From an uncultured Bacilli bacterium (GTDB lineage: Bacteria; Bacillota_I; Bacilli_A; RF39; UBA660), in assembly GCA_910577505.1 (NCBI GenBank), contig CAJTLN010000002.1, forward strand, positions 114,740 to 178,739: a stretch of DNA of 64,000 nucleotides, read 5' to 3'. The notes beneath the pieces were generated by a model. It worked only from the letters and a program-made list of their open reading frames with translations, had not been told where the DNA came from and made no database searches. Both the position numbers and the translations under genes were made by a program. Below are positions 2,068 through 46,166 of the stretch, in pieces. The first letter of the stretch is position 1. Every line of letters begins with the position of its first letter.

Positions 2068-2113
2068 TGTAAAAAAATTACAATTTATTGTATACTAATT
2101 ATAGGTGATAAAA

Positions 2114-3340
2114 ATGGAATTTACTGAACTTAAAGAAAAAGAATTTATGGAATTTGTAAATTCTAGACCAGAAAAGAATTTTTTTCAAACTATTATGATG
2201 AAAAAGAGAATAGAACTTGATGGTTATGAAGTTTATTTAGTTGGTGTTAAAGAAAAGAACAAAATTGTGGCTGCTAGTTTAATTGCAGAGACTGGACATT
2301 CTTTTATGGGAAAAAGAACTTTTGAAGCTTATAAAGGTTTTATTATGGATTATAGTAATAAAGAGCTTTTAGACTTTATGACTTTAGAAGTAAAAAAATT
2401 CTTAAAAGAAAAAAATGGTTTAAGATTAATAATAGATCCTTATATACCTAATGTTTCTAGAGATATGGATGCAAACATAATAGATGGTATAGATAATAGA
2501 CAAATAAAGGATTACTTATATAAATTAGGATATAAAGATCATGATGGAGCACAAGTAAAATGGTGTTATTGCTTAGACATAAATGGGAAAAAAAGCGATG
2601 AATTATTTAATGATTTTAGAAGTAGTACAAGAAATAACATAAGTAGAACGATATCTAAATTTAAATTAGAAATAAAAACTTTAAAGAAAGATGAACTTTC
2701 AGAGTTTAAAAAAGTTACTAGTGATACTTGTGATAGAAGAAGTTTTAGTGATAAAACATTAAAGTATTATGAAGAAATGTATGATTGTTTTGGAGACGAT
2801 GTTACATTTAAAATATGTCAGTTGAATTGTGATACATATATTAATTATTTAGAAGAAGAAACAACAGAAATGGTTAGAAGAATAAACGAGTTATCTGATT
2901 CTGCTTCTAATAAGAAGAAAAAAGAACAAATGAAAAAAGACATAGAGAATAATAAAAAGAAAGTAGAAGAAACTAAAAAATTAAAAGATGAAAAAGGTAA
3001 TATTATTCCACTTTCTGCAGCAATGTTTATTATGTATGGAGATGAAATAGTTTATTTGTTTAGTGGTTCATATGCTGAATTAATGAATTTTTGTGGTCAA
3101 TATAGATTACAATGGGAGATTATTAAATATGCAGCTGATAATGGATATAAAAGGTATAATTTTTATGGCATACAGGATGTATTTAATCCAGAAGGTAAAG
3201 ATAGAGGAGTTTATGAATTTAAAAAAGGTTTTGGTGGTTATGTAGAAGAGCTTCTTGGTTCTTTTGAAATAACAGTAAGTCCTATTAATAATCTATATGA
3301 ATTTTTAAGAAAAGTAAAAAAAGTGATTAAAAGAGGATAA
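2114..3340 (+). CDS. FemAB-family aminoacyltransferase (peptidoglycan interpeptide-bridge formation, FemA/FemB/FemX-like)
   Basis: Matches S. aureus FemA across the length. N-terminal MEFTELKEKEF...FFQT...GYEVYLVGVK aligns with FemA MKFTNLTAKEF...FTQT...GYETHLVGIK. LIIDPYIP aligns with LHIDPYLP. The central K/E-rich coiled-coil insert is present. C-terminal GSYAELMNFCGQYRLQWEIIKYAADNGYKRYNFYGI and GVYEFKKGFGGYVEE align with FemA GSYAVQWEMINYALNHGIDRYNFYGV and GVVKFKKGY. The ATG at 2114 has RBS taggtga; the tracked ORF starts at an upstream GTG. Confidence 0.85.
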   Translation: MEFTELKEKEFMEFVNSRPEKNFFQTIMMKKRIELDGYEVYLVGVKEKNKIVAASLIAETGHSFMGKRTFEAYKGFIMDYSNKELLDFMTLEVKKFLKEKNGLRLIIDPYIPNVSRDMDANIIDGIDNRQIKDYLYKLGYKDHDGAQVKWCYCLDINGKKSDELFNDFRSSTRNNISRTISKFKLEIKTLKKDELSEFKKVTSDTCDRRSFSDKTLKYYEEMYDCFGDDVTFKICQLNCDTYINYLEEETTEMVRRINELSDSASNKKKKEQMKKDIENNKKKVEETKKLKDEKGNIIPLSAAMFIMYGDEIVYLFSGSYAELMNFCGQYRLQWEIIKYAADNGYKRYNFYGIQDVFNPEGKDRGVYEFKKGFGGYVEELLGSFEITVSPINNLYEFLRKVKKVIKRG

Positions 3341-3417
3341 TTTTTATTATTCTTTTTTCTTTGTTTATTTATAAAGTTATGAGATAATGAGTATAGAAAT
3401 GATATGAAGTGATAGAT

Positions 3418-4107
3418 ATGGATAAGTATAAAATTTCATTTTATGTGTTGATGTTATTAATGATTTTTTTAATTGGTTTTAAATTGTGTGTTAATTTAAA
3501 AAATGAAGATAAGAATGAAATTAAGAGTAATTTAGAAGATGTACAAATTGGAAACTATATTATAAAAAAGAATAATAATTTTTCTTATCATAATACCAGT
3601 GAAAGAAATAAAAAAATAGAGTACATTGTAATTCATTATACAGGAGCAGAAACAAGTGCTTTATCATATGTGGAATTTTTTAATAATCCTTTATCTACGG
3701 ATGCTAGTGCAGATTATTTTGTAGATTATAATGGAGATATTTATCAATATAATTTAGATATTGATAATAGATATAGTTGGGCTGTTGGTGGAGATAATGA
3801 AAATAGTTTAGGCGGAAGTTTATATGGTATTGTAAACAATGAAAATAGTATAAGTATAGAACTTTGTGTAAGAAGTAATGGAGCTAAGGATGCAAATATG
3901 TATGGCTGGAGTTTTAACTCTGTAACTTTAGAAGCAAGTATTGAATTAGTTAAATATTTAATGGAAAAATATGGTATTTCAATTGATAATGTTATAAGAC
4001 ATTATGACGTGAATGGTAAGCTTTGTCCTGGAATTATTGGATGGAACGAAGATAGCGGTAGTGTAAATGAGTGGGAAAAGTTTAAAACAATGATATCTTT
4101 ACAATAA
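3418..4107 (+). CDS. N-acetylmuramoyl-L-alanine amidase (Amidase_2 / PGRP domain), N-terminally membrane-anchored
   Basis: N-terminal TM helix. YIVIHYTG...SADYFVD.NG.IYQ...SWAVGG...NSISIELC...VIRHYDVNGKLCPG are the conserved Amidase_2 motifs. Confidence 0.7.
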   Translation: MDKYKISFYVLMLLMIFLIGFKLCVNLKNEDKNEIKSNLEDVQIGNYIIKKNNNFSYHNTSERNKKIEYIVIHYTGAETSALSYVEFFNNPLSTDASADYFVDYNGDIYQYNLDIDNRYSWAVGGDNENSLGGSLYGIVNNENSISIELCVRSNGAKDANMYGWSFNSVTLEASIELVKYLMEKYGISIDNVIRHYDVNGKLCPGIIGWNEDSGSVNEWEKFKTMISLQ

Positions 4108-4188: not shown

Positions 4189-5688
4189 ATGAAAAAGTTA
4201 TTGTGGTTTTTAGTTATATTAGTAAGTTTTATTGAAATAGTATATGCGGATGAATTTCCATTAATAAAGGATAGAGAAGTTGCTAGAGTTGAAATAAATG
4301 ATGAACTTTGGTTTACACCAGATCGTGTTCTTTATGAATTTGGTGAAAAATATTTCGTTTATGATTTTTTTCATACTAATTACATAACAATAGGAGAAAG
4401 ACCTAATTGGCGAGGAGATTCTTTAAAAAAATACACTTTTTATGATAAGAATTGGAAAGAAATTTTAGAACATTCTAATTCTAATTTTTTTGAAGGAGAT
4501 GGTAATTATTTTATAGTCAATAATAAGATTTATAATTTTTTCTATGATTATGTACTGAATATGACAGTTTATGATGAAGATTTTCAATTTAAGACCTACA
4601 CTTTAGATTTTTGGGATGATGTGGTACCTTATGATTTTGGTATAGTAGATGTTATAGCCGATGAAAGCAATATTTATATATTATTGAAAGACATAGATCT
4701 TTATAAAGAAATTAGATTGTATGATGATAATTCTAAATATGAAATATTTGATTTAGATTTGATAGAAGTTAAAGAAAGATTTCCAGAATATTATTATAGA
4801 TATAAAAAGATGAGTGAATCATATTTTATAGTTGGTAATAATATTTATGCCTTTTATAATGATGATGAAATGAAAATGACAATTTATAAAGAAAATTCCA
4901 ACCTTGAAATTTATAATTTAGATTTTTGGGATGATGTGGTACCTTATGATTTTGGCATAGTAGATGTTATAGCTGATGAAAGCAATATTTATATATTATT
5001 GAAAGACGCAGATATTTTTAAAGAAGTCAGATTATATGATGGTAATTCTAAATATGAAATATTTGATTTAGACTTGTTGGAAGTGGAAGAAAGATTTCCA
5101 AAATATTACAATGAAGGTAATCAAAGGGCTACTGAAGAAGTGTATTATGATTGTGTCGGTAATGATGCAGTAATAAGCGGAGATATATTAGTTTATATAG
5201 AGAATGGTAATGAAAAATTTAGAATAAAAAATGAAAAATATAAAAAATATGGTCAAGCACGAAAATATAATAATTTGATTATATCTATTGCTTATAAAGG
5301 TGACTCTTTTAAAAGTGATATTTTGTTTTATGATTTAAATGGTAACCTTATTGGAACTTTTGAACATAACGCTTATGATATTGATTTATTATTTAAGAAT
5401 AATCAACTAGTTGTAGCTACATTATATGTGGATGGAATATGCGATATTTTTACCGAAGGTTATTATTCTTATAATCATAATTGCTCTAGTGTTCTAATGA
5501 ATGAAATTTATGATTTAAAGCCTGAATTTTTGGGCATGGCATTAGGAACAAGTATAGAAGAAAAACCTGATATAGTAACTAATCCTGACACTTTAGGTAT
5601 GATTAATAGAATTATAATGCTTTGTTTTATAACTTCTATTGTTATTACAATATGTGTATTAGTTAAAAAGAAATTTAAGATAATATAA
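4189..5688 (+). CDS. secreted Tyr/Asp-rich surface protein, paralog A1, with sortase-like C-terminal sorting signal (NPDTLG + hydrophobic helix + KKKFKII)
   Basis: Start MKKLLWFLVILVSFIEIVYA (signal peptide) with RBS aaggtga. Contains an internal 105-aa tandem duplication. The C-terminal conserved core RFGQAK.YN.LII.I.YK...DILFYDLNGNL...EHNAYD.D.L..NNQLVVA.LYVDGIC is shared with 6308..7189 and 8628..9899. It ends ...NPDTLGMINRIIMLCFITSIVITICVLVKKKFKII. Confidence 0.6.
   Translation: MKKLLWFLVILVSFIEIVYADEFPLIKDREVARVEINDELWFTPDRVLYEFGEKYFVYDFFHTNYITIGERPNWRGDSLKKYTFYDKNWKEILEHSNSNFFEGDGNYFIVNNKIYNFFYDYVLNMTVYDEDFQFKTYTLDFWDDVVPYDFGIVDVIADESNIYILLKDIDLYKEIRLYDDNSKYEIFDLDLIEVKERFPEYYYRYKKMSESYFIVGNNIYAFYNDDEMKMTIYKENSNLEIYNLDFWDDVVPYDFGIVDVIADESNIYILLKDADIFKEVRLYDGNSKYEIFDLDLLEVEERFPKYYNEGNQRATEEVYYDCVGNDAVISGDILVYIENGNEKFRIKNEKYKKYGQARKYNNLIISIAYKGDSFKSDILFYDLNGNLIGTFEHNAYDIDLLFKNNQLVVATLYVDGICDIFTEGYYSYNHNCSSVLMNEIYDLKPEFLGMALGTSIEEKPDIVTNPDTLGMINRIIMLCFITSIVITICVLVKKKFKII
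4540..5170 (+). repeat. in-frame tandem duplication, two ~315-bp units, ~95% nucleotide identity in the core (4603-4800 vs 4918-5115)
   Basis: ttagatttttgggatgatgtggtaccttatgattttgg.atagtagatgttatagc.gatgaaagcaatatttatatattattgaaagac... occurs twice 315 bp apart. The encoded LDFWDDVVPYDFGIVDVIADESNIYILLKD...YEIFDLDL.EV.ERFP.YY is duplicated. Confidence 0.85.
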
Positions 5689-5712
5689 AACTTCCAATTG
5701 GAAGTTTTTTTG
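5687..5712 (+). terminator. rho-independent terminator
   Basis: aacttcc-aatt-ggaagtt hairpin followed by a T-run right after the stop. Confidence 0.65.
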
Positions 5713-5882
5713 TCAATATTATAAATATAAGAAATATTTTATTTACTTAATTTTTTTATTATGATATTCTTTAATCAATATATACAAAGTAAGTTAAAGA
5801 ATACTTTTCATCATATAGCTCATCATTTTATTAAATTTATGCTCTTTAATTCTTTTATGTATATAATAAAGGAGATTAAAAT

Positions 5883-6311
5883 ATGAAGAAGATTTTTTTA
5901 ATAATTTTATTATTCTTTGCGTTTGCTAATCTTGTTTTTGCGGAAGATGTTCCTTTAAAAAGAAACAAAGAAGTTGCTAGATCTGAAGTTAAAGATCATT
6001 TTAGATTGCCAGAAAGAAAGCTTTTTTATAATGATAATAAGTATTTTATTATAGATGAGTATGAATATGTAGAAGAAATAGGTGAGCGTGAAATATTACA
6101 TACTGGCGAAATGAATTCATATCTATATGACAATAATTGGAATAAGCAAAATGAACTTGTTGGTATAACATCAAGAGATGTTCGTCTATCTTCTGTTTTT
6201 TATATTGATGATTATTATTATAGTATAAGCCAAAATGCTTATTATTATTTCAGCGATAAATCTGTATTTGAAATAAGTAGAGTAGGTAAAATTTTGATAG
6301 AGATGTTATGA
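5883..6311 (+). CDS. N-terminal (signal peptide) fragment of surface-protein paralog A2; split from the next ORF by an ATGA overlap, possibly a disrupted gene
   Basis: RBS aaaggagat. MKKIFLIILLFFAFANLVFA followed by EDVPLKRNKEVARSEVKD, which is homologous to A1 residues ADEFPLIKDREVARVEIND. Ends at TGA overlapping the next ATG (6308). Confidence 0.45.
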   Translation: MKKIFLIILLFFAFANLVFAEDVPLKRNKEVARSEVKDHFRLPERKLFYNDNKYFIIDEYEYVEEIGEREILHTGEMNSYLYDNNWNKQNELVGITSRDVRLSSVFYIDDYYYSISQNAYYYFSDKSVFEISRVGKILIEML

Positions 6312-7189
6312 AACTTGAATATAATAGGAAGAATTATACTTTAAATATTAATGAGTTATATTTTGAAAATAATGAATATATTTATTTTCTTGTTAATGAA
6401 TTTTATTATGCTTATGTTGAGGGCAAAAACATACGTATTAATGAATTTAGAATATTAAGAATTGATAAAGACTTAAGTGACTATACTTTTTTTGATTTAG
6501 ATGACGAAGAAATTATTAACAATGCTCCAGATTATTTTAATCAGATTATTATACCTAATATAGCATCAGGATTAATAGATGGAGAGAGTAATTATTTTCT
6601 TGAGAATGATAGATTATTGATTAGTGGAGATACTTTAAGTTATTATGATAATCTTGAAAAAAAGTTTGAAATAAGCAGCGAAGATTATGTTAGATTTGGT
6701 CAGGCTAAAGTCTACAATGAATTAATAATTGCTATAGGATATAAAAATTATCCTAGAGGTTATGAGGGTGATTCTGATTCGCAAACTACTGGTCTTAATA
6801 ATAGTGATATTTTGCTTTTTGATTTGGAAGGAAATTTATTATCTAAATATGAACATAATGCTTATGATTTTGACTTTTCTTTGATTGATAATCAATTAAT
6901 AGTAGCTAATTTATATGTAGATGGTATTTGTAAAGGCGAATATAGAAGTGGTGACCTTGGAGGATATTTCTCTTATAATTCTACTTGTAAAGGTACGTTA
7001 CAAAATGAAATTTTTGATTTGGATGCTAAATTTTTAGGTATGGCTGTTAGTGAAGATAAAGTTGTTGACGATATAATAGAAAATCCTGAAACTTTACCTG
7101 ATATTAATGTGATAATTATTTTTAGTTTTATCTTTTCTATTATTATTACTTTTAGTTTATTAGTAAAGTCTAAAATAAAAAGAATATAA
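6308..7189 (+). CDS. C-terminal fragment of surface-protein paralog A2 with NPETLP + hydrophobic helix + KSKIKRI sorting-signal-like end
   Basis: Shares the conserved core RFGQAKVYNELIIAIGYK...DILLFDLEGNLL..YEHNAYDFDFSLIDNQLIVANLYVDGIC with A1 and A3. Ends ENPETLPDINVIIIFSFIFSIIITFSLLVKSKIKRI. Confidence 0.5.
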   Translation: MKLEYNRKNYTLNINELYFENNEYIYFLVNEFYYAYVEGKNIRINEFRILRIDKDLSDYTFFDLDDEEIINNAPDYFNQIIIPNIASGLIDGESNYFLENDRLLISGDTLSYYDNLEKKFEISSEDYVRFGQAKVYNELIIAIGYKNYPRGYEGDSDSQTTGLNNSDILLFDLEGNLLSKYEHNAYDFDFSLIDNQLIVANLYVDGICKGEYRSGDLGGYFSYNSTCKGTLQNEIFDLDAKFLGMAVSEDKVVDDIIENPETLPDINVIIIFSFIFSIIITFSLLVKSKIKRI

Positions 7190-7190
7190 A

Positions 7191-7214
7191 AGCTTCTTAT
7201 TTAGAAGTTTTTCT
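7191..7214 (+). terminator. rho-independent terminator (weak)
   Basis: agcttct-tattt-agaagtt hairpin (one G-U pair) plus a T-run. Confidence 0.45.
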
Positions 7215-7234
7215 TTATTAAAGGAATGGTATTG

Positions 7235-8539
7235 ATGAAAAAGGATATATTGGATAGGATTATTGGAATTTATTATGTTATTTTGATTATTGCTTTATGT
7301 TTTATGGGAGGATTATCTAGTTATGATGTATTTTATAGCGATTTTATATCTAATACGTTGATTGGATTTGGAATTGTAGCTTTAATCTTGTATGTCATTT
7401 ATAGAATTAGGAACAACTCTACAAGATATTGGGATTTGATTATACTTATTATGTCTTTTTTAGGATATCTGTCTTATTATTATGCTTTTGATAAAAAAGT
7501 GGCTTTAAAAGGATTTTTGCTTGGTAGAGAAGGTTTGCTTGTAATTTATACATATTACATGACGTTTTTACTTTCATCAGTTTTAAAAAATACAAAGATG
7601 AAAAATCGTATTTTAATGACTGTTACTATTTGTGGTGCTTTACAGGTTATATATGGTCTATTACAGGTTTTTAGAATATCTAATATATTCGGATTACCAA
7701 TTGTTGGTAATTGGAAATATGCATCTGGATTTGTATTTAATTCTAACTTTTTTGGAAGTTACATGGTTTTACTTAATGGATTATGGATGAGTAGATTTTT
7801 CTTCGATAAAGAGATAAATTATAAAAATTTTTTGATTTTATTTATATTTATAACAGGTTTATTAATTAGTGGCGCCATGAGTGCTGTTGTTGCTTTATTA
7901 GTAATGTTCTGTCTGGTTGTTTTTATCAACGTGATAAATAAACAAAATAATATAAGATTGTTTCTAAGAAAAATTGGCATGTATTTAGTTTCAATTTTAT
8001 TAATTTATTCAGTAATTGTATTATGGACAAAAAGTGATTTAACTAAGGATATAAAAGAATTATATACTCAATCAGTTAGTACAGTTTCTGGTAATGTTGA
8101 TGAATCATTTGGTACTGGAAGAATCTATATTTGGAAAGAAGCTTTGAAGTATTTACCTGATTATATTTATACTGGCATAGGAATAGATAATTTTGCTTAT
8201 ATAGGTCATAGAGATGGAACATATATTTATGATTCTCCTAAGAAAGATAATATTATATATAAAGCACACAATGAGTATTTACAAATATTAGTTACAGAAG
8301 GAATATTTATGTTTGTTACTTATTTGATATTTTTAGGAAGTATTTTTTATACTGGAGTGAAGAATATTAAAAATGAAAAAAATAAGAATTTGATTGTTTG
8401 TTCATTACTTTTAATGTTTATTGGTTATTCAGTACAAGCATTCTTCAATATAAGTATGACGCTTATTGCACCTATATTTTTTATGATTAGTGGAATGCTG
8501 GTGTCTTGTTGTGAGGAGAAAATAGTAAAGGAATGTTAA
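7235..8539 (+). CDS. Wzy_C-domain polytopic membrane protein (O-antigen ligase / O-oligosaccharyltransferase family), paralog W1
   Basis: About 10 predicted TM helices. Large loop with GTGRIYIWKEALKYLPDYIYTGIGIDNFAY...AHNEYLQILVTEGIFMF, matching the Wzy_C signature (R...W...G.G...HN.YL...E.G). ATG 7235 has better RBS spacing than ATG 7226. Confidence 0.7.
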   Translation: MKKDILDRIIGIYYVILIIALCFMGGLSSYDVFYSDFISNTLIGFGIVALILYVIYRIRNNSTRYWDLIILIMSFLGYLSYYYAFDKKVALKGFLLGREGLLVIYTYYMTFLLSSVLKNTKMKNRILMTVTICGALQVIYGLLQVFRISNIFGLPIVGNWKYASGFVFNSNFFGSYMVLLNGLWMSRFFFDKEINYKNFLILFIFITGLLISGAMSAVVALLVMFCLVVFINVINKQNNIRLFLRKIGMYLVSILLIYSVIVLWTKSDLTKDIKELYTQSVSTVSGNVDESFGTGRIYIWKEALKYLPDYIYTGIGIDNFAYIGHRDGTYIYDSPKKDNIIYKAHNEYLQILVTEGIFMFVTYLIFLGSIFYTGVKNIKNEKNKNLIVCSLLLMFIGYSVQAFFNISMTLIAPIFFMISGMLVSCCEEKIVKEC

Positions 8540-8627
8540 TGTCAAAATATGGTTACTTTACATTATAATTTTTTTATGTTATTCTTTTCTTGTAAGATAG
8601 TGTATTTCGTTGTATGAGGTGAATAAA

Positions 8628-9899
8628 ATGATAAAAAATAAAATGCCTTTTTTAGTAGGATTTATAGTTTTCTTTTTAGTATTTACTATAGCTTTAGCGT
8701 TAGAAAACGTATTAGAAAGCACAAATGTTGTTAGTGAAATTGATTTTGATGTTATGCAAATTTCAAAGAATAATGTTGTCTTTTATAATGATGGATATAT
8801 TAATTATTTGAATTATTTACAAGGTATTAATCATAGTAAAAAAATTCAGTATTTTGATTTGGATGGAGAATTAAAATCTGAAATAGATGTTCCTTTTTTT
8901 TATTATGGTAGCATGTTTGATGACATAAAAAGTGAGATGATTGTTTCTGATAAATATGTATATATTTTTGATAGAGAAGATTATAAACCACACTCATTTT
9001 CTCCAGTAACTAATGAAGATTTAATTATACATAAATATGATGATAGTTTAAATGAAATTTCTAGTATAAAATTATCAGATTTTGGGGTAAAGTACGAATC
9101 TTTATATTATGTTGATGATGATAATGATAATGTTTATATATATATTTCTAATGAAAGTAGTTCAAAAATTTATAATATAGATTCTGAATTTAAAGAAGTA
9201 ATTCCTATAGAAACTAGTGATGAAAATCTAAAAAAATATTTTCCATCTTTAATAATTACCCAAAACCTTCAATTGGATGAAGATGTGAATTTTAGTTTAT
9301 TGGATAAATGTTTATATTTAGAAAATATAAATAATTATGTAATAGGTTCTAAAAAAAGTATTGGTACTTTAGAAGATGAAGATACTAGTATTTCTTATTT
9401 GAAATATGTAGAAAATGACGAAGTCCTTTTTGAAATAGAAAATGAAAATTATATTTCTTTTTCTTATCCTAGAAAATATAATAATTTGATTTTTGTATTT
9501 GGTGGTTACAATGATACAATGATTGGTTATAAAAGCGATATTTTGGTTTATGATTTGTCTGGTAATTTATTGCAAATTGTGGAAAATAATTCTGTTAATA
9601 GGTCTTATGATATTATGGGTGATAAGTTAATTTTATCTAGAAATTATTTTGATGGTGAATTAGAAAGATTGTTAGAATATAATATATTCTCTACACATAA
9701 GGTGTATTTTTACAATGATATATATAAAATAAATGATGATTTTTTGGGAAGCTCAGTTACTGATAATCCTAAAGAAGAAAAGCCCATTTATGATATAAAG
9801 AATCCAGAAACGAAAGATATTGCTATTATATTAATATTATTACTTTCTGTTGTTTCTTTTATATATTTTATTATTACAAATAAAAAGAAGATTTGTTGA
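8628..9899 (+). CDS. secreted Tyr-rich surface protein, paralog A3, with NPETK + hydrophobic helix + NKKKIC C-terminus
   Basis: RBS gaggtg, then MIKNKMPFLVGFIVFFLVFTIALA signal peptide. Conserved core ...YNNLIFVFGGY...DILVYDLSGNLL..VENN... is shared with A1/A2. Ends KNPETKDIAIILILLLSVVSFIYFIITNKKKIC. Confidence 0.6.
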   Translation: MIKNKMPFLVGFIVFFLVFTIALALENVLESTNVVSEIDFDVMQISKNNVVFYNDGYINYLNYLQGINHSKKIQYFDLDGELKSEIDVPFFYYGSMFDDIKSEMIVSDKYVYIFDREDYKPHSFSPVTNEDLIIHKYDDSLNEISSIKLSDFGVKYESLYYVDDDNDNVYIYISNESSSKIYNIDSEFKEVIPIETSDENLKKYFPSLIITQNLQLDEDVNFSLLDKCLYLENINNYVIGSKKSIGTLEDEDTSISYLKYVENDEVLFEIENENYISFSYPRKYNNLIFVFGGYNDTMIGYKSDILVYDLSGNLLQIVENNSVNRSYDIMGDKLILSRNYFDGELERLLEYNIFSTHKVYFYNDIYKINDDFLGSSVTDNPKEEKPIYDIKNPETKDIAIILILLLSVVSFIYFIITNKKKIC

Positions 9900-9906
9900 T
9901 AATTAG

Positions 9907-9929
9907 AAACTTCCTTATGGGAGTTTTTA
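9907..9929 (+). terminator. rho-independent terminator (weak)
   Basis: aaacttcc-ttat-gggagttt hairpin plus a T-run. Confidence 0.45.
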
Positions 9930-9942
9930 TGATGGAGGGTTT

Positions 9943-11247
9943 ATGAGAGAAAAAATTTATTATATGTTGTTAGAAATATACTTAATATTAGTTTTGTTAT
10001 GGTTGTTTATTGGTTCAATATTAAATACTTATGAATATATAGATAGTACTTTAACATCTTTAGGATTATTTGTATTTGCAATACTTGGTATAATTTTATA
10101 TATATTTTATAAATTTATACAAAAGAAATATTCTCTTATGGATTATTTGATAGTAATGATGAGTTTATTAGGATATCTTTCTTATTGTAATGCTTTTGAT
10201 AAAAGAGTAGCTCTTATTGGATTTATAGATGGAAGAGAAGGATTGCTTGCAATTCTTTCTTATTATATGATTTTTCTTTTAAGTACTACTGTAAAAAATG
10301 AAAAAATAAGAAAAGATGTTTTTAAATTATTAACACTGATAGGGATTATATTTGTTTTTTATGGAGTATTGCAAATTTTTGGTATATTTTCTTTTTTAGG
10401 AATACCAATAGTTGGGCAGTGGAAATATGCTTCTAGTCTACTTAATAATTCTAATTTTATGGGGGCGTTTTGTGTTTTGATGAGTGGTTTATGGTTGGGA
10501 AAATATTTTTTTGAGGATATTGAAAAAATAAATTACAAATCATTAATTGTATTATTTATATTCGTATTAGGTTTATTAATTAGTGGAGCAATGAGTGCAT
10601 TTGTTGCTTTGATTGTGATGATGTTAATAATAATATTTATTTATTTTTTTGTATTTAGAAAAAGATTTAATATAAAAAAAGTTTTTTTAAAAGTTTTAAA
10701 TATTTTCTTAATTTTTTTAATAAGTTTCATTTTTGTAAATTGTTGTAATTCAAACGAATTAATAAAGGATGTAAGAATATTAAATAGTGAAGTTTTTAAT
10801 TCTGCTACATCTGGTTTGAAGAAAGAATATGGAACTGGTAGAGTACATATATGGAAAGAATCCTTAAAGTATTTCCCTAAATATATATGGACTGGAGTTG
10901 GGATAGATAATTTTATTTATTTAGGAAAGAATGAATTTGTTACTGATTATATATCTGGAGTAAAGTATTCTAAAGCACATAATGAATATTTACAGATATT
11001 ACTTACTGAAGGTATCTTTATGTTTGTTATATATTTGTTGTTTTTAGGGATAATTTTTATTAAATCATTATTATCTATTTTTAGAAATAAAAAAGTAAAT
11101 TATGTTGTATTATCACTATTTTTAGCTTATTTCGGATATTGTATTCAAGCTTTCTTTAATATAAGTATGATAAAAGTAGCTCCAATATTTTATATGATTA
11201 GTGGAATGCTGGTGTCTTGTGTTGAAGGAGAGAAATTGAAGTATTAA
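9943..11247 (+). CDS. Wzy_C-domain polytopic membrane protein (O-antigen ligase / O-OTase family), paralog W2
   Basis: Clear paralog of 7235..8539. Both share FDK.VAL.GF..GREGLL, SGAMSA.VAL.VM, GTGR.HIWKE.LKY.P.YI.TG.GIDNF.Y.G, AHNEYLQIL.TEGIFMFV, and a C-terminal ISGMLVSC. Confidence 0.7.
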   Translation: MREKIYYMLLEIYLILVLLWLFIGSILNTYEYIDSTLTSLGLFVFAILGIILYIFYKFIQKKYSLMDYLIVMMSLLGYLSYCNAFDKRVALIGFIDGREGLLAILSYYMIFLLSTTVKNEKIRKDVFKLLTLIGIIFVFYGVLQIFGIFSFLGIPIVGQWKYASSLLNNSNFMGAFCVLMSGLWLGKYFFEDIEKINYKSLIVLFIFVLGLLISGAMSAFVALIVMMLIIIFIYFFVFRKRFNIKKVFLKVLNIFLIFLISFIFVNCCNSNELIKDVRILNSEVFNSATSGLKKEYGTGRVHIWKESLKYFPKYIWTGVGIDNFIYLGKNEFVTDYISGVKYSKAHNEYLQILLTEGIFMFVIYLLFLGIIFIKSLLSIFRNKKVNYVVLSLFLAYFGYCIQAFFNISMIKVAPIFYMISGMLVSCVEGEKLKY

Positions 11248-11415: not shown

Positions 11416-12300
11416 ATGTCATTTATTTCTTTAATGAGAGATTTTACTTTTAAAACTTTATGGGTGATAGGGAGTGAAGATAGTAAAAAATTTTTGAATA
11501 GAATTGTTTTTGAATTAGTTGGATATGATACTAATGATTTTATTTTAGGAATGAATGAATTAGGAGCTAATAATTATAAAAGTTTAGCAAATAGGTTAGA
11601 CATATTACTTTGCTCTAAAGATAATTTGACTAAAATAAATGTAGAAATTAATAGTGAATATAAAATTATTATGGTAAATAAAAACGATTCTTATATATAT
11701 AAGTTAGCAGATGAATTTTATTCTGGTATGGAAAGTAGTGATAAATATAAGCAAGAAATTAAAGTAGAACAAATAAATATAAATGGGTTTCTTAATAGAG
11801 AAGATAAAAGTGTTACGATAGCTCATTATGTTTCACGTGATTTAGATAATGATTTGGTTAGGAATGGAGTTAAATTCCATGATGTGTATCTACCAAATGT
11901 GAAAGAAATGTGTTATGATGGTTGTGATGAAATATATAAAGATTTAGCTATGTTTATGGCAAAGAGCTATGAAGAGATGACGGAATATGCTAAAGGAAAT
12001 AAAGAGAGGGAAACCGTTATGAAAGATTTGAAAAGACTTGGTAGTGATGAAGAATATGTAGATTTATATGATCATGACGAATTTGATGCTATTTTATTAC
12101 AATCATATAAAGATGATGATAGGGCAGAAGGATTGGCGGAAGGACGTGCAGAAAGTCGAGCTGAAGGACGAGAAGAAGGGCGAACTGAAGGACGAGCCGA
12201 AGGGCATATTGAAGGAAAAAAAGAAAAGGAACTAGAAATTATTGATAAATTAAAAAGTAAAGGCTTAACTGAAGAAGAGATAAAAGATTTATTAAGTTAG
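11416..12300 (+). CDS. Rpn-family (YhgA-like, PD-(D/E)XK) recombination-promoting nuclease / putative transposase
   Basis: N-terminal LMRDFTFKTLW...FLNRIVFELVG (the D..FK.LF motif of the PDDEXK_2/transposase_31 family). C-terminal tandem AEGLAEGRAESRAEGREEGRTEGRAEGHIEG repeats are typical of the Rpn C-terminal domain. No inverted repeats are seen flanking it. Confidence 0.55.
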   Translation: MSFISLMRDFTFKTLWVIGSEDSKKFLNRIVFELVGYDTNDFILGMNELGANNYKSLANRLDILLCSKDNLTKINVEINSEYKIIMVNKNDSYIYKLADEFYSGMESSDKYKQEIKVEQININGFLNREDKSVTIAHYVSRDLDNDLVRNGVKFHDVYLPNVKEMCYDGCDEIYKDLAMFMAKSYEEMTEYAKGNKERETVMKDLKRLGSDEEYVDLYDHDEFDAILLQSYKDDDRAEGLAEGRAESRAEGREEGRTEGRAEGHIEGKKEKELEIIDKLKSKGLTEEEIKDLLS

Positions 12301-19649: not shown

Positions 19650-19762
19650 TTATTAGCGAAGATATTAGGCAACAATATCTTTTTTTGTTTTTTATGAGCA
19701 AATTTTGATTATTTTTCTAGTTTGTGTTATTATTATTCCCATGTGAAAAAGGGTGGTTTTTT

Positions 19763-21085
19763 ATGAAAAGAAAAATATCTGTAAATGACTTAAAAGTCGG
19801 TTATGTATTAGAAGAAGATATTAAAACAGGCGATGGTAAAATTTTAATAAAAAAAGGTACTGTTTTAACAGAAAATCTAATTATAAGATTAAGACAATGG
19901 AATGCTAAAAATGATTGTGTATTGGTTGTTGATGATTGTAAGGAAGAGATTGAAAAAAAAGATTTACAAGAAAAAGTTACAACTTCTTTAGAAAATGTTT
20001 TATCAGCAAGTCAAGAAGAACTTTCTAAAGCTGTTTTAGATTTAGATAGTTATGTTTCACATGTTTATGATGATTTAAAAACTATTGAAGATTTGCCGGA
20101 AGATATAATAAAAATTCAGTTTGCAAATACTCGTGGAGGACATTATTTTCGTTTGATGGCAATGTCTTGTGCACTTGCTAGTTTGTATAATAAAGAAATG
20201 GCTAATGGTCAAGAAATATCATTACATTCAATAGCACTTGCAGCTGTATTGCACGATTACGGAAAAAGATTTAGAAATGATCCAACTGGTTTAGGAAATT
20301 TGAAGATTGCTAAAAATGATACTGAGACTGCTGAAATGTTAAGTACACCTTATAGAGATGAACATCAATCTGTATTTTATCATTTGAAGGTAAAAGATAT
20401 GATTAATGGCCCTTATATTGATAGATATCATTCTGCTTATGCATATGTGGCTTTAAAAGATGTTGTACCAGAAGATGTTAGAGCAACTATATTATATTCT
20501 AATAGTACTAAAGAATCTTTTCAAAGAAAGCCAAAATATAATACTGTAATTAAAGCAGCAAATATTATAGCAATAAGTGATGCTTACGATACTTTATTAG
20601 AATATGTTGTTAGAGAAGTTATGAGTACTCCTTTTGAAAACGTTATTTCTTATATGGATCAGCTTGTGCATAATGGTTCTTTAGATAGTGAATTATATAG
20701 TTTATTTTTAAAACATATTCCAATATATCCAACAGGTTCTAAAGTATTATTATCTAATGATCAATATGCTGTCGTTGTTAGAAGATCTTCATCATTTCCA
20801 ACTAAACCATTAGTACTTACTTTGCCTCCAGCAGCGCCTGTATTAATAGATTTAAGTGAAACAACTAACATAACAATAAGAAGAGTTGTTAAAACTGATG
20901 AACATGCTTCAGATAAAGTAGATTCTATTCAAAGAGAGCAATTAGAAGGATTTATGACTAATCAAGTTAATATTACTTCAGAAGATGATCCTAGTACTGT
21001 AGTATTAAGAAGGGAACCAAGAGAACAATCCGTAACTTTAGGTAAGAGATTTAAGGGATTTCTTTCTCCTGAAAATAAAAAGTAA
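19763..21085 (+). CDS. HD-domain phosphohydrolase-like protein (HD-GYP-related N-terminal region, HD motif LHDYGK; no intact GYP motif seen)
   Basis: HSIALAAVLHDYGKRF is HD-like. The N-terminal MKRKISVNDLKVGYVLEEDIK...G.VLTENLI resembles the DUF3391-type N-domain seen before HD-GYP domains. RBS aagggtgg. Confidence 0.45.
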   Translation: MKRKISVNDLKVGYVLEEDIKTGDGKILIKKGTVLTENLIIRLRQWNAKNDCVLVVDDCKEEIEKKDLQEKVTTSLENVLSASQEELSKAVLDLDSYVSHVYDDLKTIEDLPEDIIKIQFANTRGGHYFRLMAMSCALASLYNKEMANGQEISLHSIALAAVLHDYGKRFRNDPTGLGNLKIAKNDTETAEMLSTPYRDEHQSVFYHLKVKDMINGPYIDRYHSAYAYVALKDVVPEDVRATILYSNSTKESFQRKPKYNTVIKAANIIAISDAYDTLLEYVVREVMSTPFENVISYMDQLVHNGSLDSELYSLFLKHIPIYPTGSKVLLSNDQYAVVVRRSSSFPTKPLVLTLPPAAPVLIDLSETTNITIRRVVKTDEHASDKVDSIQREQLEGFMTNQVNITSEDDPSTVVLRREPREQSVTLGKRFKGFLSPENKK

Positions 21086-24972: not shown

Positions 24973-27087
24973 GTGAGACTTTTCTATAATAACGTATTTA
25001 AAAATTATTTTCTTCTAATGATAACTTTATTTGTTGAAGAACTTATATTTAGATGGTGTGTAGGTTTTTCATTATTTGATTGGTCTGTGTTAAGAATATT
25101 TATTGGGATTAATGCATTAAGTTTATTTCTAAGTGCAATATTTTCATTGTGTGGAAGAGTTGTTAGTAATATTTTATCTTTACTAGCAGCAGTAATTTGT
25201 ACGGTATATGCTTTAGTTCAAGCAGGATTTTTAAATTATCTTGGTGTCTTTATGTCTTTTGGGACGACTTCTCAAGCAGGTGCAGTTAAAGATTATATAA
25301 TGGATTATATTGCATCATTTTCTTGGAAATTTTGGTTAATACTTATTCCATTAGCATTTTTATTAATATTCTATGTTTTCTTTGATCATAGAATAAAAGT
25401 TTTAGAGAGAAATGATACAATAGATTTTGCTGATAAATTTGATAGTGAAGAACGTAAAAAATTAAATGATCAAATTTTAGCTAAGAAAAAAAGAAGAAGA
25501 TTAGTTAATGCAAAAATAAATGCAATGGTTCTTGCGGTTGCTTTTGCTGGTGTTTATTACTATACTCTTGGGGCTGACTTTATGCAAAATGATTTACAAT
25601 TAAAGTCAACAAAAGAACTTTTTGATAATCCAGATATTCCTAATATTGCAATGGGACAATTTGGATATACAATGTATGCTTTTGCTGATTTAAAAGCTGT
25701 GTTGTTACCAACAGATTCTATAGAAGAAACTCCTTTTGATGATGGTTATGTAAAAAATGAGCAGGTAATTAGTGATTATACTAGATATATGGATGATACA
25801 ATTTGGGAACAAATAATTTCTGATGAGAGTAGAGCAAACTATAAAAAATTGAATAATTATTATATAAGTCAACCTATTACAGATAAAAATGATTTTACTG
25901 GTTTCTTTAAAGATAAAAATTTAATTGTAATAATGATGGAATCAACAAATAATATTTTAATAAATGAAGAGTTTTTTCCGAATTTTTATAAACTATATAA
26001 TGAAGGTTGGGCTTGGGATAATGCTTATAGTCCTAGAAATTCTTGTTCTACTGGAAATAATGAAATGAGTGGAATGACTAGTTTATTTACGATTAATAAT
26101 TCTTGTACAGCAAATAATTATAAAAGAAATATTTATCCTGGAGCTATATTTAATTTATTTAATAAATCAGGATATACTACTACTAGTTTCCATAATTATA
26201 CTGATCAATATTATGCTAGAACTATATATCATCCTAATATGGGAAGTGGACATTTTTATGGTGTTCAAGAATTAGGAATTCCTTATAGCAATGTATATCA
26301 TGAGTGGCCTAGTGATGTTGAATTAGTTGAAAAAGTTCTTAATATTACAAAGGATCAAGATAAATTTATGACATGGATTACTTCTGTGTCTGCACATCAA
26401 CCATATACTCAAAGTAGTGAATTAGGAGATAAATATCTTGATTTATTTAAAGATACTAACTATAATATTTCACTTAAGAGGTATATGTCTAAATTAAAAG
26501 AATTTGATAATGCTATTGGAACGTTACTTGATGGACTAGAAGCTCAGGGAAAATTAGATGATACTGTAATTGTTTTATATGCTGATCATTATCCTTATGG
26601 CTTGAATACTAGTACTATTAATTCTTATTTTGATTATGATGTAACTAAGAGATATGAAGTTGATAGAACACCTTTTGTTATTTATAATACAAAGATGCAT
26701 GCACAGAAATATAAAGAATATACTTCATATGTAAATATTGTTCCAACTGTTGCTAATTTATTTGATTTAGATTATGATCCTAGATTATATGTTGGACAAG
26801 ATTTATTGTCAGAAAGTTATGAAAATAGGGTTGTTTTCTCTGATGGTTCATGGCAAGATGAAAAAGCATTCTATAGTGCATCAGGTGGTAGAATTATATA
26901 TTTTGAACCTAATACTACTTATACACCAGAGGAAATTAAAAATATTAATACTAATATCAAAAATAAAATATCTATGTCTAATTTAGCAATAAAGGTTAAT
27001 TACTTTAATTATTTAGAAGAAACAAAAGAAAAATATAAAGTAGAACAAATTCAATCTCAGAGTGGAGATGTATCAGTTTCTGAATAG
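24973..27087 (+). CDS. LtaS-family protein (5-TM anchor + extracytoplasmic sulfatase-type phosphoglycerol-transferase domain)
   Basis: Five N-terminal TM helices. After them, NLIVIMMESTNN is the sulfatase-domain Ser/Thr-metal site. Total 704 aa. The start codon is uncertain (GTG 24973 or ATG 25018). Confidence 0.6.
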   Translation: MRLFYNNVFKNYFLLMITLFVEELIFRWCVGFSLFDWSVLRIFIGINALSLFLSAIFSLCGRVVSNILSLLAAVICTVYALVQAGFLNYLGVFMSFGTTSQAGAVKDYIMDYIASFSWKFWLILIPLAFLLIFYVFFDHRIKVLERNDTIDFADKFDSEERKKLNDQILAKKKRRRLVNAKINAMVLAVAFAGVYYYTLGADFMQNDLQLKSTKELFDNPDIPNIAMGQFGYTMYAFADLKAVLLPTDSIEETPFDDGYVKNEQVISDYTRYMDDTIWEQIISDESRANYKKLNNYYISQPITDKNDFTGFFKDKNLIVIMMESTNNILINEEFFPNFYKLYNEGWAWDNAYSPRNSCSTGNNEMSGMTSLFTINNSCTANNYKRNIYPGAIFNLFNKSGYTTTSFHNYTDQYYARTIYHPNMGSGHFYGVQELGIPYSNVYHEWPSDVELVEKVLNITKDQDKFMTWITSVSAHQPYTQSSELGDKYLDLFKDTNYNISLKRYMSKLKEFDNAIGTLLDGLEAQGKLDDTVIVLYADHYPYGLNTSTINSYFDYDVTKRYEVDRTPFVIYNTKMHAQKYKEYTSYVNIVPTVANLFDLDYDPRLYVGQDLLSESYENRVVFSDGSWQDEKAFYSASGGRIIYFEPNTTYTPEEIKNINTNIKNKISMSNLAIKVNYFNYLEETKEKYKVEQIQSQSGDVSVSE

Positions 27088-40156: not shown

Positions 40157-42439
40157 ATGGAAGATAAAGAATTAGAAAAGACTAAGCCTATTGAAGTTAT
40201 TAATGAAGAAATTGAAAGTCGTAGTGAACGATATAATGAAGATTTTAGCGATGACTTGTCTAGAGAACAAAAGTATAAAGATAAAATAGAAGTTGAAGAA
40301 AGAAAAGTAGAAGAAGAAGCTGCTGAAGAAGCTTTAGCCGAAAAAAATATTGCATTGGCAGAATCATATTTAGCAGAAGAAAGACAAGAAGAAGTTTTAG
40401 AAGAACCAGTTCTACAGAAAAAAATGAACTTGATAGATAAAATAAAAGCTAAATGGGAAGATATGGATAAAAAACAAAGAATAATGTTAATTGTGATTCT
40501 TGTTTTATTATTGATTTTAATATTAATATTTACAATTTTTATAGTTATTAGGTTAAATAAAAAAGATACTTTAGATAAGCCAGAGAAAAAAGTAGAAGAA
40601 AAAGCTCCAGAAATAACTGATAATTTCTATTATAAAGACGGTAAGTTATATTTTTTAGATGCTTCAGAAAAAGAAATAGGAACATATGAATGTGAAAATA
40701 AGGATTCTAAATTATGTTATGTGGCTAATAATAAATATAGGGATGATTTTGATGTTCCAAAATTAGAAGATGAAGATAAAGAAGAAATAGTTAATAGAAT
40801 GTCAATATATGAGGATAATTATGTTTTTGTTGTAGATACAAGTGATGAGAAGAATAAAGATACTAAGTTATACTCTATAAAAGATAATGAAGTTAAGGAT
40901 GCATATTCTGATGTTAAAGCTTATGATGATAATTATGTTATTGTAGCTAATACAGATAAGAAATATGGTTTAATAGAGATAAATGAAGGAATAAAAGAAG
41001 TTATAAAGAATAATTATGAATATTTAGGATTAATAGATGGAGAAGATAACCTAATTGCTAAAAATAAAAAAGGTTACATTGTTATTGATAAAAAGAATAA
41101 AGAATTAAGTTCTATATTTGATTCTAAGTATGAAATTAAATCGTATAATAATAATTTTGTAGTTGCTAAAGTAGGTAACGAATACTTAGCATTTAATTAT
41201 AAAAATGAAGTTATTGCTAGTGGATATAAATATATAACAGTAGCTGATGATTATGTTGTTGCAGCAAATGATGAGAAAAAAGTTTATATTTATGATGGTG
41301 AAAAAAATAAATATAATGAAGGTAATATATCTTTAAATAATGATAATTATGTTAAGACATATATTTATAATGATAAGGGAAGTATTCTAGAAATAAAGAG
41401 AAGCTTTGAAGTAACTGTTAAAGATACTGTAATAGAAATAGCTGTTTATAAAGAGGGAGAAGATAATCCGACTTATAAAAACATTGATATTGTTGAAGGA
41501 TTAGCAAATAAGAAAAATAAATATGTAAATTATTTTGAAAATAAATTGTATATTTATAAAGATTTAGATAAAACACAATTGTTAACAATTTATACTTGTG
41601 ATAATAAGAATTATATAACTAAAGAGTCAGATACTTTTGATTATTGTTTTATTGCTCAAGATGAAATATATGAAGATCACGATATGATGGAACAAGGATA
41701 TAAAGATAGAAAAGCTTTGGTTCCAATAATAAATAATAGATTTATCTTTATCAAAGATGGTAATAATACAGTAAAATTATATAATTTTGTTGAAGATAAA
41801 GTAATGGGAACATATACAAGTGTTAATTCTTATACTAATAATAATGATTATAGTGTTTCATATTTTGATGGTAAGATTGATATTGTAGGTGTAAATAAAA
41901 AAGGTAAATATGGGGTACTTACAATAGATGGTGATAATGTAAGGGCGAAATATACATTTGAATATAATAAGATAGAAAAAATGGAAGATAATTTTATTGC
42001 TCAAGATTCAAATAATAATTGGAAATTATTAAAGAGTGATGGAAATGAGTCCGAAAGTTTTAAAGGTAAAATAATGGGTTATTCTAAAGATATGAAGTAC
42101 TTTAAAATTAAGGTCGGCAATAATTATGTTGTATATAATGATAATAATGAACAAGTTAGTGTAGATATTCATTCTTATGTTGACTTATATAATGGCTATT
42201 ATGTTGGAGTAGACAAAGAAAAAAAATTGTATATATATGATTATCAAGGTGAAAAATTATCTACAGAAGGGATTAAATTAGGAGATTTTCCTTATGTTAA
42301 TACAAATAATCCTGCATATAAGGTAAAGAAGGTTGGCAATGACTTTGTAGTTTCTGTATATGATGGATCAAATTATATTGATTATAGTACAAAAGCAGAT
42401 AAAGTAGAGACTCCAGAAGAAAATTCGGAAGAATCATAA
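40157..42439 (+). CDS. type-II membrane protein: acidic coiled-coil cytoplasmic N-terminus, one TM helix, large extracytoplasmic WG/KWG-like repeat (beta-propeller-type) domain
   Basis: RBS aaaggtagg. TM helix IMLIVILVLLLILILIFTIFIVI. More than 10 degenerate ~35-45-aa repeats of the form (D/N)NYV.V....KKYG(L/V)I..NG..V(I/L), including NNNWKLLKSDGNE. Confidence 0.5.
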   Translation: MEDKELEKTKPIEVINEEIESRSERYNEDFSDDLSREQKYKDKIEVEERKVEEEAAEEALAEKNIALAESYLAEERQEEVLEEPVLQKKMNLIDKIKAKWEDMDKKQRIMLIVILVLLLILILIFTIFIVIRLNKKDTLDKPEKKVEEKAPEITDNFYYKDGKLYFLDASEKEIGTYECENKDSKLCYVANNKYRDDFDVPKLEDEDKEEIVNRMSIYEDNYVFVVDTSDEKNKDTKLYSIKDNEVKDAYSDVKAYDDNYVIVANTDKKYGLIEINEGIKEVIKNNYEYLGLIDGEDNLIAKNKKGYIVIDKKNKELSSIFDSKYEIKSYNNNFVVAKVGNEYLAFNYKNEVIASGYKYITVADDYVVAANDEKKVYIYDGEKNKYNEGNISLNNDNYVKTYIYNDKGSILEIKRSFEVTVKDTVIEIAVYKEGEDNPTYKNIDIVEGLANKKNKYVNYFENKLYIYKDLDKTQLLTIYTCDNKNYITKESDTFDYCFIAQDEIYEDHDMMEQGYKDRKALVPIINNRFIFIKDGNNTVKLYNFVEDKVMGTYTSVNSYTNNNDYSVSYFDGKIDIVGVNKKGKYGVLTIDGDNVRAKYTFEYNKIEKMEDNFIAQDSNNNWKLLKSDGNESESFKGKIMGYSKDMKYFKIKVGNNYVVYNDNNEQVSVDIHSYVDLYNGYYVGVDKEKKLYIYDYQGEKLSTEGIKLGDFPYVNTNNPAYKVKKVGNDFVVSVYDGSNYIDYSTKADKVETPEENSEES

Positions 42440-43269: not shown

Positions 43270-43291
43270 CTACAATTTGGTAGTTATTTTT
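43267..43291. terminator. bidirectional rho-independent terminator between convergent genes
   Basis: aactac-aatttgg-tagtt hairpin with an A6 run upstream and T5 downstream. Confidence 0.55.
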
Positions 43292-46152: not shown

Positions 46153-46166
46153 GTGGAGTGATAAAA

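Follow-up and report, generated by a model that had tools for sequence, protein, structure and literature searches.

Propeller-type surface proteins and WaaL-fold enzymes co-diversify as gene pairs in uncultured gut Bacilli: a candidate target-linked O-glycosylation module

Introduction

What does a membrane enzyme of the Wzy_C/WaaL family act upon when its gene lies, in one genome after another, directly behind a gene for a secreted protein? This question is raised by a 64-kb stretch of DNA (hereafter the window; ~25% G+C) from an uncultured gut Bacilli lineage, in which three related surface proteins (A1, A2 and A3) are encoded among two such enzymes (W1 and W2). Sequence comparison across related genomes suggests that the A and W genes evolved together as pairs, and that each enzyme may attach a sugar chain to the protein encoded next to it. 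We tentatively read these pairs as target-linked, O-oligosaccharyltransferase (O-OTase)-like systems, a reading that we favour while holding it short of probable. An earlier note on this DNA had already proposed that each W enzyme is dedicated to its neighbouring A protein, which it described as strikingly tyrosine-rich and sorted to the cell surface, with tyrosine glycosylation by the enzyme WsfB as the model.

Results

The A and W genes all lie on the forward strand, and comprise the following features (nt, nucleotides; aa, amino acids; ORF, open reading frame; TM, transmembrane; HMM, hidden Markov model; AF2, AlphaFold2).

4189..5688, + strand: A1, identified as an ORF; signal peptide, propeller, stalk, NPDT motif, TM helix and KKKFKII tail
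4507..5108, + strand: internal tandem duplication of A1, found by repeat search as two 287-nt copies
5687..5712, + strand: hairpin with U-run at the A1 stop codon (-9.5 kcal/mol, z = -3.09; the terminator scan agrees)
5883..6311, + strand: A2 N-terminal fragment of 142 aa, with signal peptide and conserved EVAR segment (A-family HMM, 1.6e-15)
6290..6311, + strand: A2 frameshift zone, the sole overlap of both frames; the ORFs are joined by ATGA
6308..7189, + strand: A2 C-terminal fragment of 293 aa, with core, NPET motif, TM helix and basic tail (A-family HMM, 7.2e-53)
7188..7214, + strand: hairpin with U-run between A2 and W1 (-8.5 kcal/mol, z = -2.13)
7235..8539, + strand: W1, 12-TM transferase of predicted WaaL/Wzy_C fold (Pfam Wzy_C, 61.9 bits); W clade beta
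8628..9899, + strand: A3, a divergent A paralogue identified as an ORF; NPET motif, TM helix and NKKKIC tail; A clade 4
9904..9929, + strand: hairpin with U-run between A3 and W2 (-12.2 kcal/mol, z = -3.75; equalled by none of 200 shuffles)
9943..11247, + strand: W2, 12-TM transferase of predicted WaaL/Wzy_C fold (Pfam Wzy_C, 59.7 bits; AF2 model)

The ORFs of A1, W1, A3 and W2 are as the earlier note had drawn them. A2, which it had treated as one gene (5883..7189), consists of two ORFs.

We compared the A-W loci of seven assemblies (the window and loci L001, L005, L012, L014, L015 and L016) by local HMM searches. Each A-bearing genome had a W gene in the same cluster, and an A gene was found immediately 5' of 11 of the 14 W genes. 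In neighbour-joining trees, five A clades correspond one-to-one to five W clades, and a single genome can hold several of these clades. A3-type genes always precede W2-type genes, as the A3 orthologue in L001 does, and A1/A2-type genes precede W1-type genes. Furthermore, the distance matrices of 12 pairs correlated at r = 0.837 in a mirror-tree comparison, a value reached by none of 10000 random re-pairings, and the actual A-W pairing ranked first of 32 among within-genome swaps. Adjacency, matching clades and swap rank thus support a dedicated pairing of W with its neighbour; that A is the target of the enzyme we infer.

The pairing is not always one gene to one gene. In L001, six A genes lie upstream of a single W gene, and such a surplus of A over W would fit many substrates served by one enzyme. 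At another chromosomal position, in locus L021, a divergent A relative with an NPVT motif is followed by a 1005-aa fusion of Wzy_C with SpoIIP, the W part of which is very divergent (37 bits to Wzy_C). A scan of metagenomes with an A alignment retrieved two loci, one of them a duplicate, and a scan of genome contigs one locus.

Judged from sequence and structure prediction, W1 and W2 are WaaL/Wzy_C-fold (GT-C_B) enzymes with intact catalytic Arg and His, and represent a new member of the Wzy_C/WaaL family. The two proteins are 47% identical (E 6e-124), and their Pfam Wzy_C (PF04932) scores are well above the gathering score of 31.7, in agreement with the paralogy and family assignment made before. 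Wzy_C was the only domain found by the Pfam scan of W1 and W2 (E <= 0.01), with no tetratricopeptide repeat (TPR), PglL_A or Wzy_C_2. An NCBIfam scan of the A and W proteins gave no meaningful match, nor did any sorting-domain model match.

In a phmmer search of the PDB, the sole match of W1 was the O-antigen ligase WaaL (7TPG, E 1.5e-8). The signature reported earlier, GTGR(I/V)(Y/H)IWKE, G(I/V)GIDNF and AHNEYLQIL.TEGIFMF, is present in the W proteins, and GTGR and AHNEY of W1 align with the Arg and His segments of WaaL. The corresponding loop residues are Arg296 (nt 8120-8122) and His345 (nt 8267-8269) in W1, and Arg300 (nt 10840-10842) and His346 (nt 10978-10980) in W2, where both are placed in an outward-facing loop. 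Five columns, R300, W304, K344, H346 and N347 in W2 numbering, are invariant across 48 W homologues. The same Arg, which binds pyrophosphate, and the catalytic His define the active site of WaaL and of the O-OTase PglS (PMC12800693).

The AF2 model of W2, built with the 48 homologues, has a predicted local distance difference test score (pLDDT) of 91.6 and a predicted template modelling score (pTM) of 0.93. WaaL 7TPG was its only significant Foldseek match in the PDB (E 2e-7, TM-scores 0.58/0.62). The helix pattern indicates 12 TM segments, with the N- and C-termini inside and the loop 269-357 outside. This topology agrees with two fusions among the relatives of W: the C-terminal Bac_transf domain in L010 is attached directly, and the GH3 domain in L015 follows one extra TM helix.

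The A proteins, as far as sequence and model can tell, are type-I membrane-anchored surface proteins, each with a Sec signal peptide, a propeller ectodomain, a stalk, a TM helix and a basic cytoplasmic tail. Their paralogy, noticed before, is confirmed by pairwise E-values from 5e-43 to 2e-12: A1 matches the C-terminal part of A2 with 44% identity over 252 aa (E 5e-43), A3 with 34% over 140 aa (E 1e-15), and the N-terminal part of A2 at E 2e-12. The A family had five matches in a database of 5.8 billion proteins, and 51 cluster representatives at E <= 1e-3 among 1.84 billion clusters. A profile of 30 A sequences, limited by the word filter of the search, retrieved 3 proteins from the former database. 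A Pfam scan of the A proteins assigned them to no family, with only sub-threshold Kelch hints for A3. In A1, A2 and A3 it also found no N_methyl motif, and as propellers they do not class as pilins or pilin-like proteins. The family and its C-terminal NPxT signature appear to be undescribed so far.

The AF2 model of A1 is an all-beta propeller (pLDDT 73.5, pTM 0.67), and Foldseek against the PDB retrieved generic propellers only (WD40, BamB and sortilin-type). The stalk, residues 455-471, which joins the propeller to the C-terminal helix, has pLDDT < 50 and is predicted to be disordered. An alignment of 30 A sequences has a mean identity of 19% and a conserved Cys pair. The tandem duplication in A1, with copies 84% identical and a period of 315 nt (105 aa), is recent and supplies extra propeller blades. 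It also occurs in the L014 orthologue P0003, and is absent from P0002.

The A2 region 5883..7189 is 1307 nt long, which is not a multiple of 3, and its second frame is open only from 6290, within a stretch (6290-6311) rich in A4T4. The C-terminal piece itself lacks a signal peptide, which makes A2 either a pseudogene or an assembly frameshift. Genetic code 4 or another recoding was ruled out as the cause of the split, as the stop is reached by a change of frame and the other genes are normal under table 11. Three genomes each have one A copy that is split into an N-terminal piece, with the signal peptide, and a C-terminal piece (window 5883-7189, L001 1798-3050 and L005 14867-16081); the breaks come after 142, 121 and 211 aa, respectively. 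These copies may be pseudogenes that arose independently, frameshifts of the assembly, or a two-gene form that is tolerated.

Tyrosine makes up 8.2-9.4% of the A proteins, compared with 7.1-7.6% of W1 and W2 and 5.9% of the 37 other proteins of the window. The description of the A proteins as strikingly tyrosine-rich was thus overstated. In the 30-sequence alignment no conserved, exposed Tyr stands out. We dropped tyrosine glycosylation of A, as the enrichment is modest, W shares the excess, and a conserved exposed Tyr is lacking.

A near-invariant feature of the A proteins lies close to the membrane. The motif NPxT is found as NPDT in A1 (nt 5581-5592), and as NPET in A2 (nt 7082-7093) and A3 (nt 9801-9812). 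In the 30-sequence alignment its N and T are invariant, and P is present in at least 90%. Among 60 unique A C-termini, 58 have the Thr, and 52 have P together with E, D or N (NPET 23, NPDT 22, NPNT 7). In most cases 0-6 residues separate the motif from the hydrophobic segment. All full-length A proteins have the order of motif, hydrophobic segment and basic tail that is expected of sortase substrates. The residue after the Thr is L in 11 of the 60 C-termini, K in 9, N in 7, E in 6, T in 6, S in 5, A in 4 and G in 1; a conserved small residue (G, N, A or S), also expected of sortase substrates, was not found at this position in the 60. Members of the same A clade have similar TM helices and tails, for example LCFI in clade 3 and xKK(h)(D/E)F at the C-terminal end in clade 1. 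The C-terminal architecture that had led to the A proteins being called sorted thus stands, with NP(D/E)T, TM helix and basic tail in each of the three; sorting itself is an interpretation of it.

The NPxT C-terminal module is not strictly bound to the A family, because a 314-aa secreted protein in L001 (17003-17947), which is not an A protein and has no Pfam match, ends in NPKTG, a TM helix and a basic tail. At the corresponding place in the window there is no gene.

Sequence and model make the Thr of NPxT a better acceptor candidate than tyrosine. No other conserved hydroxyl lies in a flexible segment level with the active site of a WaaL-type enzyme, and this Thr is therefore the most plausible acceptor.

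Hairpins with U-runs separate the A genes from what follows. They were reported earlier after A2 and A3; A1 has one too, and in all three cases the hairpin starts at the stop codon. In related genomes 13-14 of the 22 A genes have such an element 3' of them, and few W genes have one. The hairpin behind A could act as an attenuator, giving an abundant A transcript and a lower, read-through expression of W.

Upstream of the A and W genes, the window holds two further envelope genes.

2105..3340, + strand: FemAB-family gene (Pfam FemAB, 8.1e-97), context only
3409..4107, + strand: Amidase_2, a membrane-anchored N-acetylmuramoyl-L-alanine amidase (Pfam, 7.4e-21), directly 5' of A1

Their position directly upstream of the cluster, as stated before, is borne out by Pfam. 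An Amidase_2 gene lies directly 5' of an A gene in 6 of the 7 genomes, which makes it a recurrent third member of the module. In L012 it lies between A and W and overlaps W by 4 nt. Genes for GH3 proteins are found within the island in L005, L012 and L016, and a gene for a Wzx-type (Polysacc_synt) flippase lies 3' of W in L005, L012 and L015. Two W proteins are themselves fused to peptidoglycan-hydrolase-type domains, namely Wzy_C::GH3 in L015 (7476-9929, 817 aa) and Wzy_C::SpoIIP in L021 (10551-13568), which has an insertion of ~130 aa in the outer loop. SpoIIP is a peptidoglycan amidase family other than Amidase_2. This recurrent link with peptidoglycan hydrolases (Amidase_2, GH3, SpoIIP) had been overlooked. 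The product of the module probably acts at the cell wall.

Wider relatives of W, with 30-36% identity, occur in loci without A. In L010, W is fused to a Bac_transf phosphoglycosyl transferase (8001-9866, 621 aa) and accompanied by two GT2 genes. Locus L008 (3968-14123) contains a tandem duplicate of a W-GT2-radical-SAM unit. One copy is preceded by a gene for a 1205-aa Listeria-Bacteroides-repeat protein and the other by a gene for a 426-aa type IV pilin-like protein (N_methyl 30.5 bits, C-terminal end ...DSAS), and these two proteins have a C-terminal domain in common. In L017 (8001-11347) the order is W, a 144-aa pilin (KGFTLIELL), GT2 and GtrA. The W relatives flanking the pilin genes in L008 and L017 have 34-35% identity.

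A variable envelope island begins, on its left, at FemAB; this border is conserved, with FemAB in the same position in L005, L012, L014 and L015. From this conserved neighbourhood, the module is therefore part of an island that extends from FemAB to a YgjP/SpoU/RimM/TrmD block. Between W2 and a conserved 183-aa gene lies a gene (11416-12300) whose 294-aa product ends in an (R/E)AEG(R) repeat and weakly matches Rpn-family or PD-(D/E)XK transposase-like proteins (TIGR01784, E 0.038). Among the fetched loci its equivalent was found only in L002, whose W gene product is identical to W2. The gene looks like an insertion, because the relatives L001 and L014 have no equivalent. On the other side, 5' of FemAB, a 467-aa zinc-ribbon protein with a TM segment and an acidic low-complexity region (641-2044) is kept at the same position in L005 (531 aa).

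Elsewhere in the window, an LtaS-like sulfatase-domain protein (24973-27087, 704 aa) and, on the reverse strand, a VanY D-Ala-D-Ala carboxypeptidase (43284-44267) are encoded. They indicate a monoderm envelope with lipoteichoic acid (LTA) of the polyglycerol-phosphate type and peptidoglycan. A 1297-aa protein (47520-51413) combines a C-terminal GH3 domain (1.2e-51) with a long unannotated N-terminal part. The stretch 5' of it (45013-47492) encodes two proteins, one of 379 aa that contains a signal-peptidase S26-like domain and an uncharacterised one of 449 aa. Several sizeable ORFs, for example 19724-21085, 40157-42439 and 58782-60068, have no Pfam family. Almost all genes of the window are on the forward strand, and GC skew is strongly positive across positions 1-64000 (0.14-0.50). 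Rfam and tRNA scans of the window found no family and no tRNA, and a promoter scan was uninformative, with 83 sites against 83.8 expected.

Discussion

The reading that we tentatively favour is that A and W form target-linked, O-OTase-like pairs, in which W would move a flipped glycan, linked to undecaprenyl pyrophosphate (Und-PP), onto its cognate A protein. This would follow the logic of pilA-tfpO. Genes elsewhere in the genome would provide for synthesis of the Und-PP-linked glycan, which a Wzx-type flippase would then flip; such a donor is suggested because homologues of W are fused to a Bac_transf phosphoglycosyl transferase and because Wzx flippase genes adjoin W in relatives. W may bind the glycan at its outward-facing Arg/His site and transfer it en bloc to its own A partner, where the Thr of the juxtamembrane NPxT, not a tyrosine, would be the acceptor. 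A relation of substrate and enzyme fits the data because there can be several A per W, the A ectodomain evolves fast, A pseudogenes recur, a hairpin separates A from W, and relatives of W have pilin neighbours.

Several observations weigh against this reading. Both W genes of L012 and one W gene of L016 have no A gene directly upstream. Block duplication alone can give matching trees, so that co-diversification shows linkage and not a substrate relation, although selection can be argued for because adjacency holds down to ~20% A identity and at another locus. The window has no gene for a glycosyltransferase, a phosphoglycosyl transferase or a flippase, and distant W relatives adjoin glycan genes, in the order GT4-W-LicD-ABC in L006 and beside GT4 genes in L018 and L019. 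Simple protein glycosylation would not lead one to expect fusions with GH3 and SpoIIP or an amidase as constant neighbour, and both point to a cell-wall glycan as substrate or acceptor. Finally, the C-terminal order of NPxT, TM helix and basic tail also resembles a sortase signal; the L001 protein outside the A family ends likewise.

Part of this evidence could be explained if W1 and W2, like TacL or TuaE/SscD, ligated or polymerised a glycopolymer that is either lipid-linked or a secondary component of the cell wall, and if the A proteins were surface proteins that merely share the variable envelope island with them. Such enzymes exist in Gram-positive bacteria. TacL (RafX), the LTA ligase of S. 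pneumoniae, belongs to the Wzy_C proteins and joins teichoic acid, supplied in Und-PP-linked form, to a glycolipid (PMC5727136), and TuaE and SscD of Bacillus and Staphylococcus are Wzy_C polymerases encoded next to a Wzx-type flippase (PMC11841062). The flippase genes beside W in L005, L012 and L015, the GT4 and LicD genes in L006 and GT4 genes in L018 and L019, the phosphoglycosyl transferase fused to W in L010, and the peptidoglycan hydrolases fused to or adjoining W all point in this direction. The earlier note had named W relatives in polysaccharide loci as evidence that would count against its proposal, and in part this is what we found. Distant relatives do lie among genes for glycosyltransferases, LicD, an ABC transporter and Wzx, and given these contexts W may be a polymer ligase or polymerase; around W itself, no polysaccharide or teichoic-acid locus was found in the window, L001, L014 or L016. 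Furthermore, the A-bearing genomes have neither glycosyltransferase genes around W nor genes for teichoic or teichuronic acid synthesis alongside it. A polymer enzyme would account neither for the A gene directly 5' of W in 11 of 14 cases, nor for the one-to-one match between the clades of A and W inside genomes with several clades, nor for the fact that even the very divergent W of L021 follows a divergent A in a different chromosomal context. We therefore consider this explanation unlikely.

The close pairing itself would also be expected if A were a cognate extracellular subunit of W, bound through its TM helix and NPxT stalk, with the complex and the amidase acting together on a wall glycan. 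Pairs of this kind are known from class B penicillin-binding proteins with SEDS (shape, elongation, division and sporulation) proteins and from Wzz with Wzy, and co-diversification with adjacency is what obligate complexes should exhibit. WaaL and RodA have the GT-C_B fold in common (PMC12800693), the TM helices and tails of A are conserved within clades, and the link with Amidase_2, SpoIIP and GH3 recurs. Variable substrates are nevertheless a better fit for up to six A genes per W, for frequent A pseudogenes and splits, and for the very fast divergence of the ectodomain, and the relatives of W pair with pilin-like genes, whose products are classic O-OTase targets. On balance, a subunit role for A seems improbable to us.

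Two further proposals concern the C-terminal motif. NP(E/D/N)T with TM helix and basic tail may be a sortase-B-like signal, cleaved after the Thr and linked to a cross-bridge built by FemAB, with the sortase encoded elsewhere. This proposal addresses the role of the motif only and is compatible with the other readings. NPQTN and NPKTG are class B sortase motifs. The tripartite C-terminal architecture of A, the NPKTG end of the L001 protein and the FemAB gene adjoining the island agree with this idea. What makes us doubt it is that the residue after the Thr is highly variable, with Gly in 1 of 60, unlike LPXTG or NPxTG/N, that Pfam reported no sortase domain for the 64-kb window or for ~300 kb of related loci, and that clade-conserved cytoplasmic tails are unexpected of a segment that is discarded. 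Alternatively, NPxT-CTERM could be a new sorting or anchoring signal, with W as its dedicated processing enzyme joining the Thr of A to an Und-PP-linked wall precursor (a secondary polymer or a lipid II-derived glycan) and the amidase, SpoIIP or GH3 protein trimming peptidoglycan at the attachment site. Surface proteins would then be coupled to the wall without a sortase. To this proposal we give very little credence.

How do the A-W pairs relate to known systems? We compared W with TacL, TuaE, WsfB, PglL and TfpO on the basis of their descriptions. The genes of the target-specific O-OTases TfpO, TfpM and PglS adjoin those of their targets; in the case of TfpO and TfpM, the modified residue is a Ser or Thr at the C-terminal end (PMC12645811). 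Like TfpO/PilO and TfpM, known from the pilA-tfpO loci of Pseudomonas and Acinetobacter, W is a polytopic Wzy_C/WaaL-like enzyme without PglL_A and Wzy_C_2, its gene is directly beside that of its putative target, and a candidate hydroxyl is near the C-terminal end of the latter. Relatives of W in L008 and L017 even flank genes for type IV pilin-like proteins, as in pilA-tfpO. In contrast to TfpO and TfpM, the hosts of W are uncultured Bacilli of Gram-positive type, and its neighbours in the window are propeller-bearing type-I membrane proteins instead of pilins. Moreover, the candidate site is a juxtamembrane NPxT before a TM helix and not a free C-terminal residue, the A-W pairs have multiplied and co-diversified into five clades, peptidoglycan hydrolases are nearby, and glycosylation is here a proposal. 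The general O-OTases PglL and PglS differ from W in combining Wzy_C with PglL_A and/or Wzy_C_2 (PMC12645811).

With WaaL of Cupriavidus metallidurans (7TPG/7TPJ), W has in common the predicted fold and the conserved Arg and His of the outward loop, although the sequences are only 16% identical. The acceptor of W must differ from that of WaaL, because the host has no lipid A-core; the LtaS-like gene and FemAB indicate a monoderm wall. TacL and TuaE/SscD, Wzy_C proteins of Firmicutes whose substrates are flipped, Und-PP-linked precursors of wall polymers and which are often found beside a flippase of the Wzx/TacF type (PMC5727136, PMC11841062), resemble W in that three relatives of the latter adjoin a flippase gene. 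Unlike W, they are not known to be paired or co-diversified with a dedicated family of secreted proteins.

WsfB of Paenibacillus alvei and WsaB of Geobacillus stearothermophilus are, like W, Gram-positive Wzy_C enzymes, for which glycosylation of surface proteins was proposed (PMC2943079). A TPR motif is part of WsfB, while WsaB works with a TPR partner; the two enzymes are encoded in an slg glycan-synthesis locus and have the S-layer protein as target (PMC2943079). TPR is absent from W1 and W2, the A proteins are propellers anchored by a TM helix, and the 64-kb window has no nucleotide-sugar genes and no S-layer or slg-type glycan cluster. Together with the small tyrosine enrichment, which is common to A and W, these differences speak against the WsfB-style modification that had been suggested for the locus.

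If W does glycosylate A, this would be target-dedicated, en bloc O-glycosylation in monoderm Bacilli, with a substrate that is not a pilin and a sequon, NPxT, that is short, defined and close to the membrane. It would extend the known range of bacterial O-OTases, provide new pairs of enzyme and sequon for glycoengineering, and explain what an orphan protein family from uncultured gut bacteria is for. In the five co-diversified clades of enzyme and partner, nature offers a specificity-swap experiment. Should the partner be a wall glycan, the recurrent fusions of a WaaL fold with peptidoglycan hydrolases would suggest that Gram-positive wall assembly includes a step so far undescribed. If the reading as O-OTases is right, the co-diversified pairing of A and W, together with the amidase, would be a new variation on the target-linked O-OTase theme.

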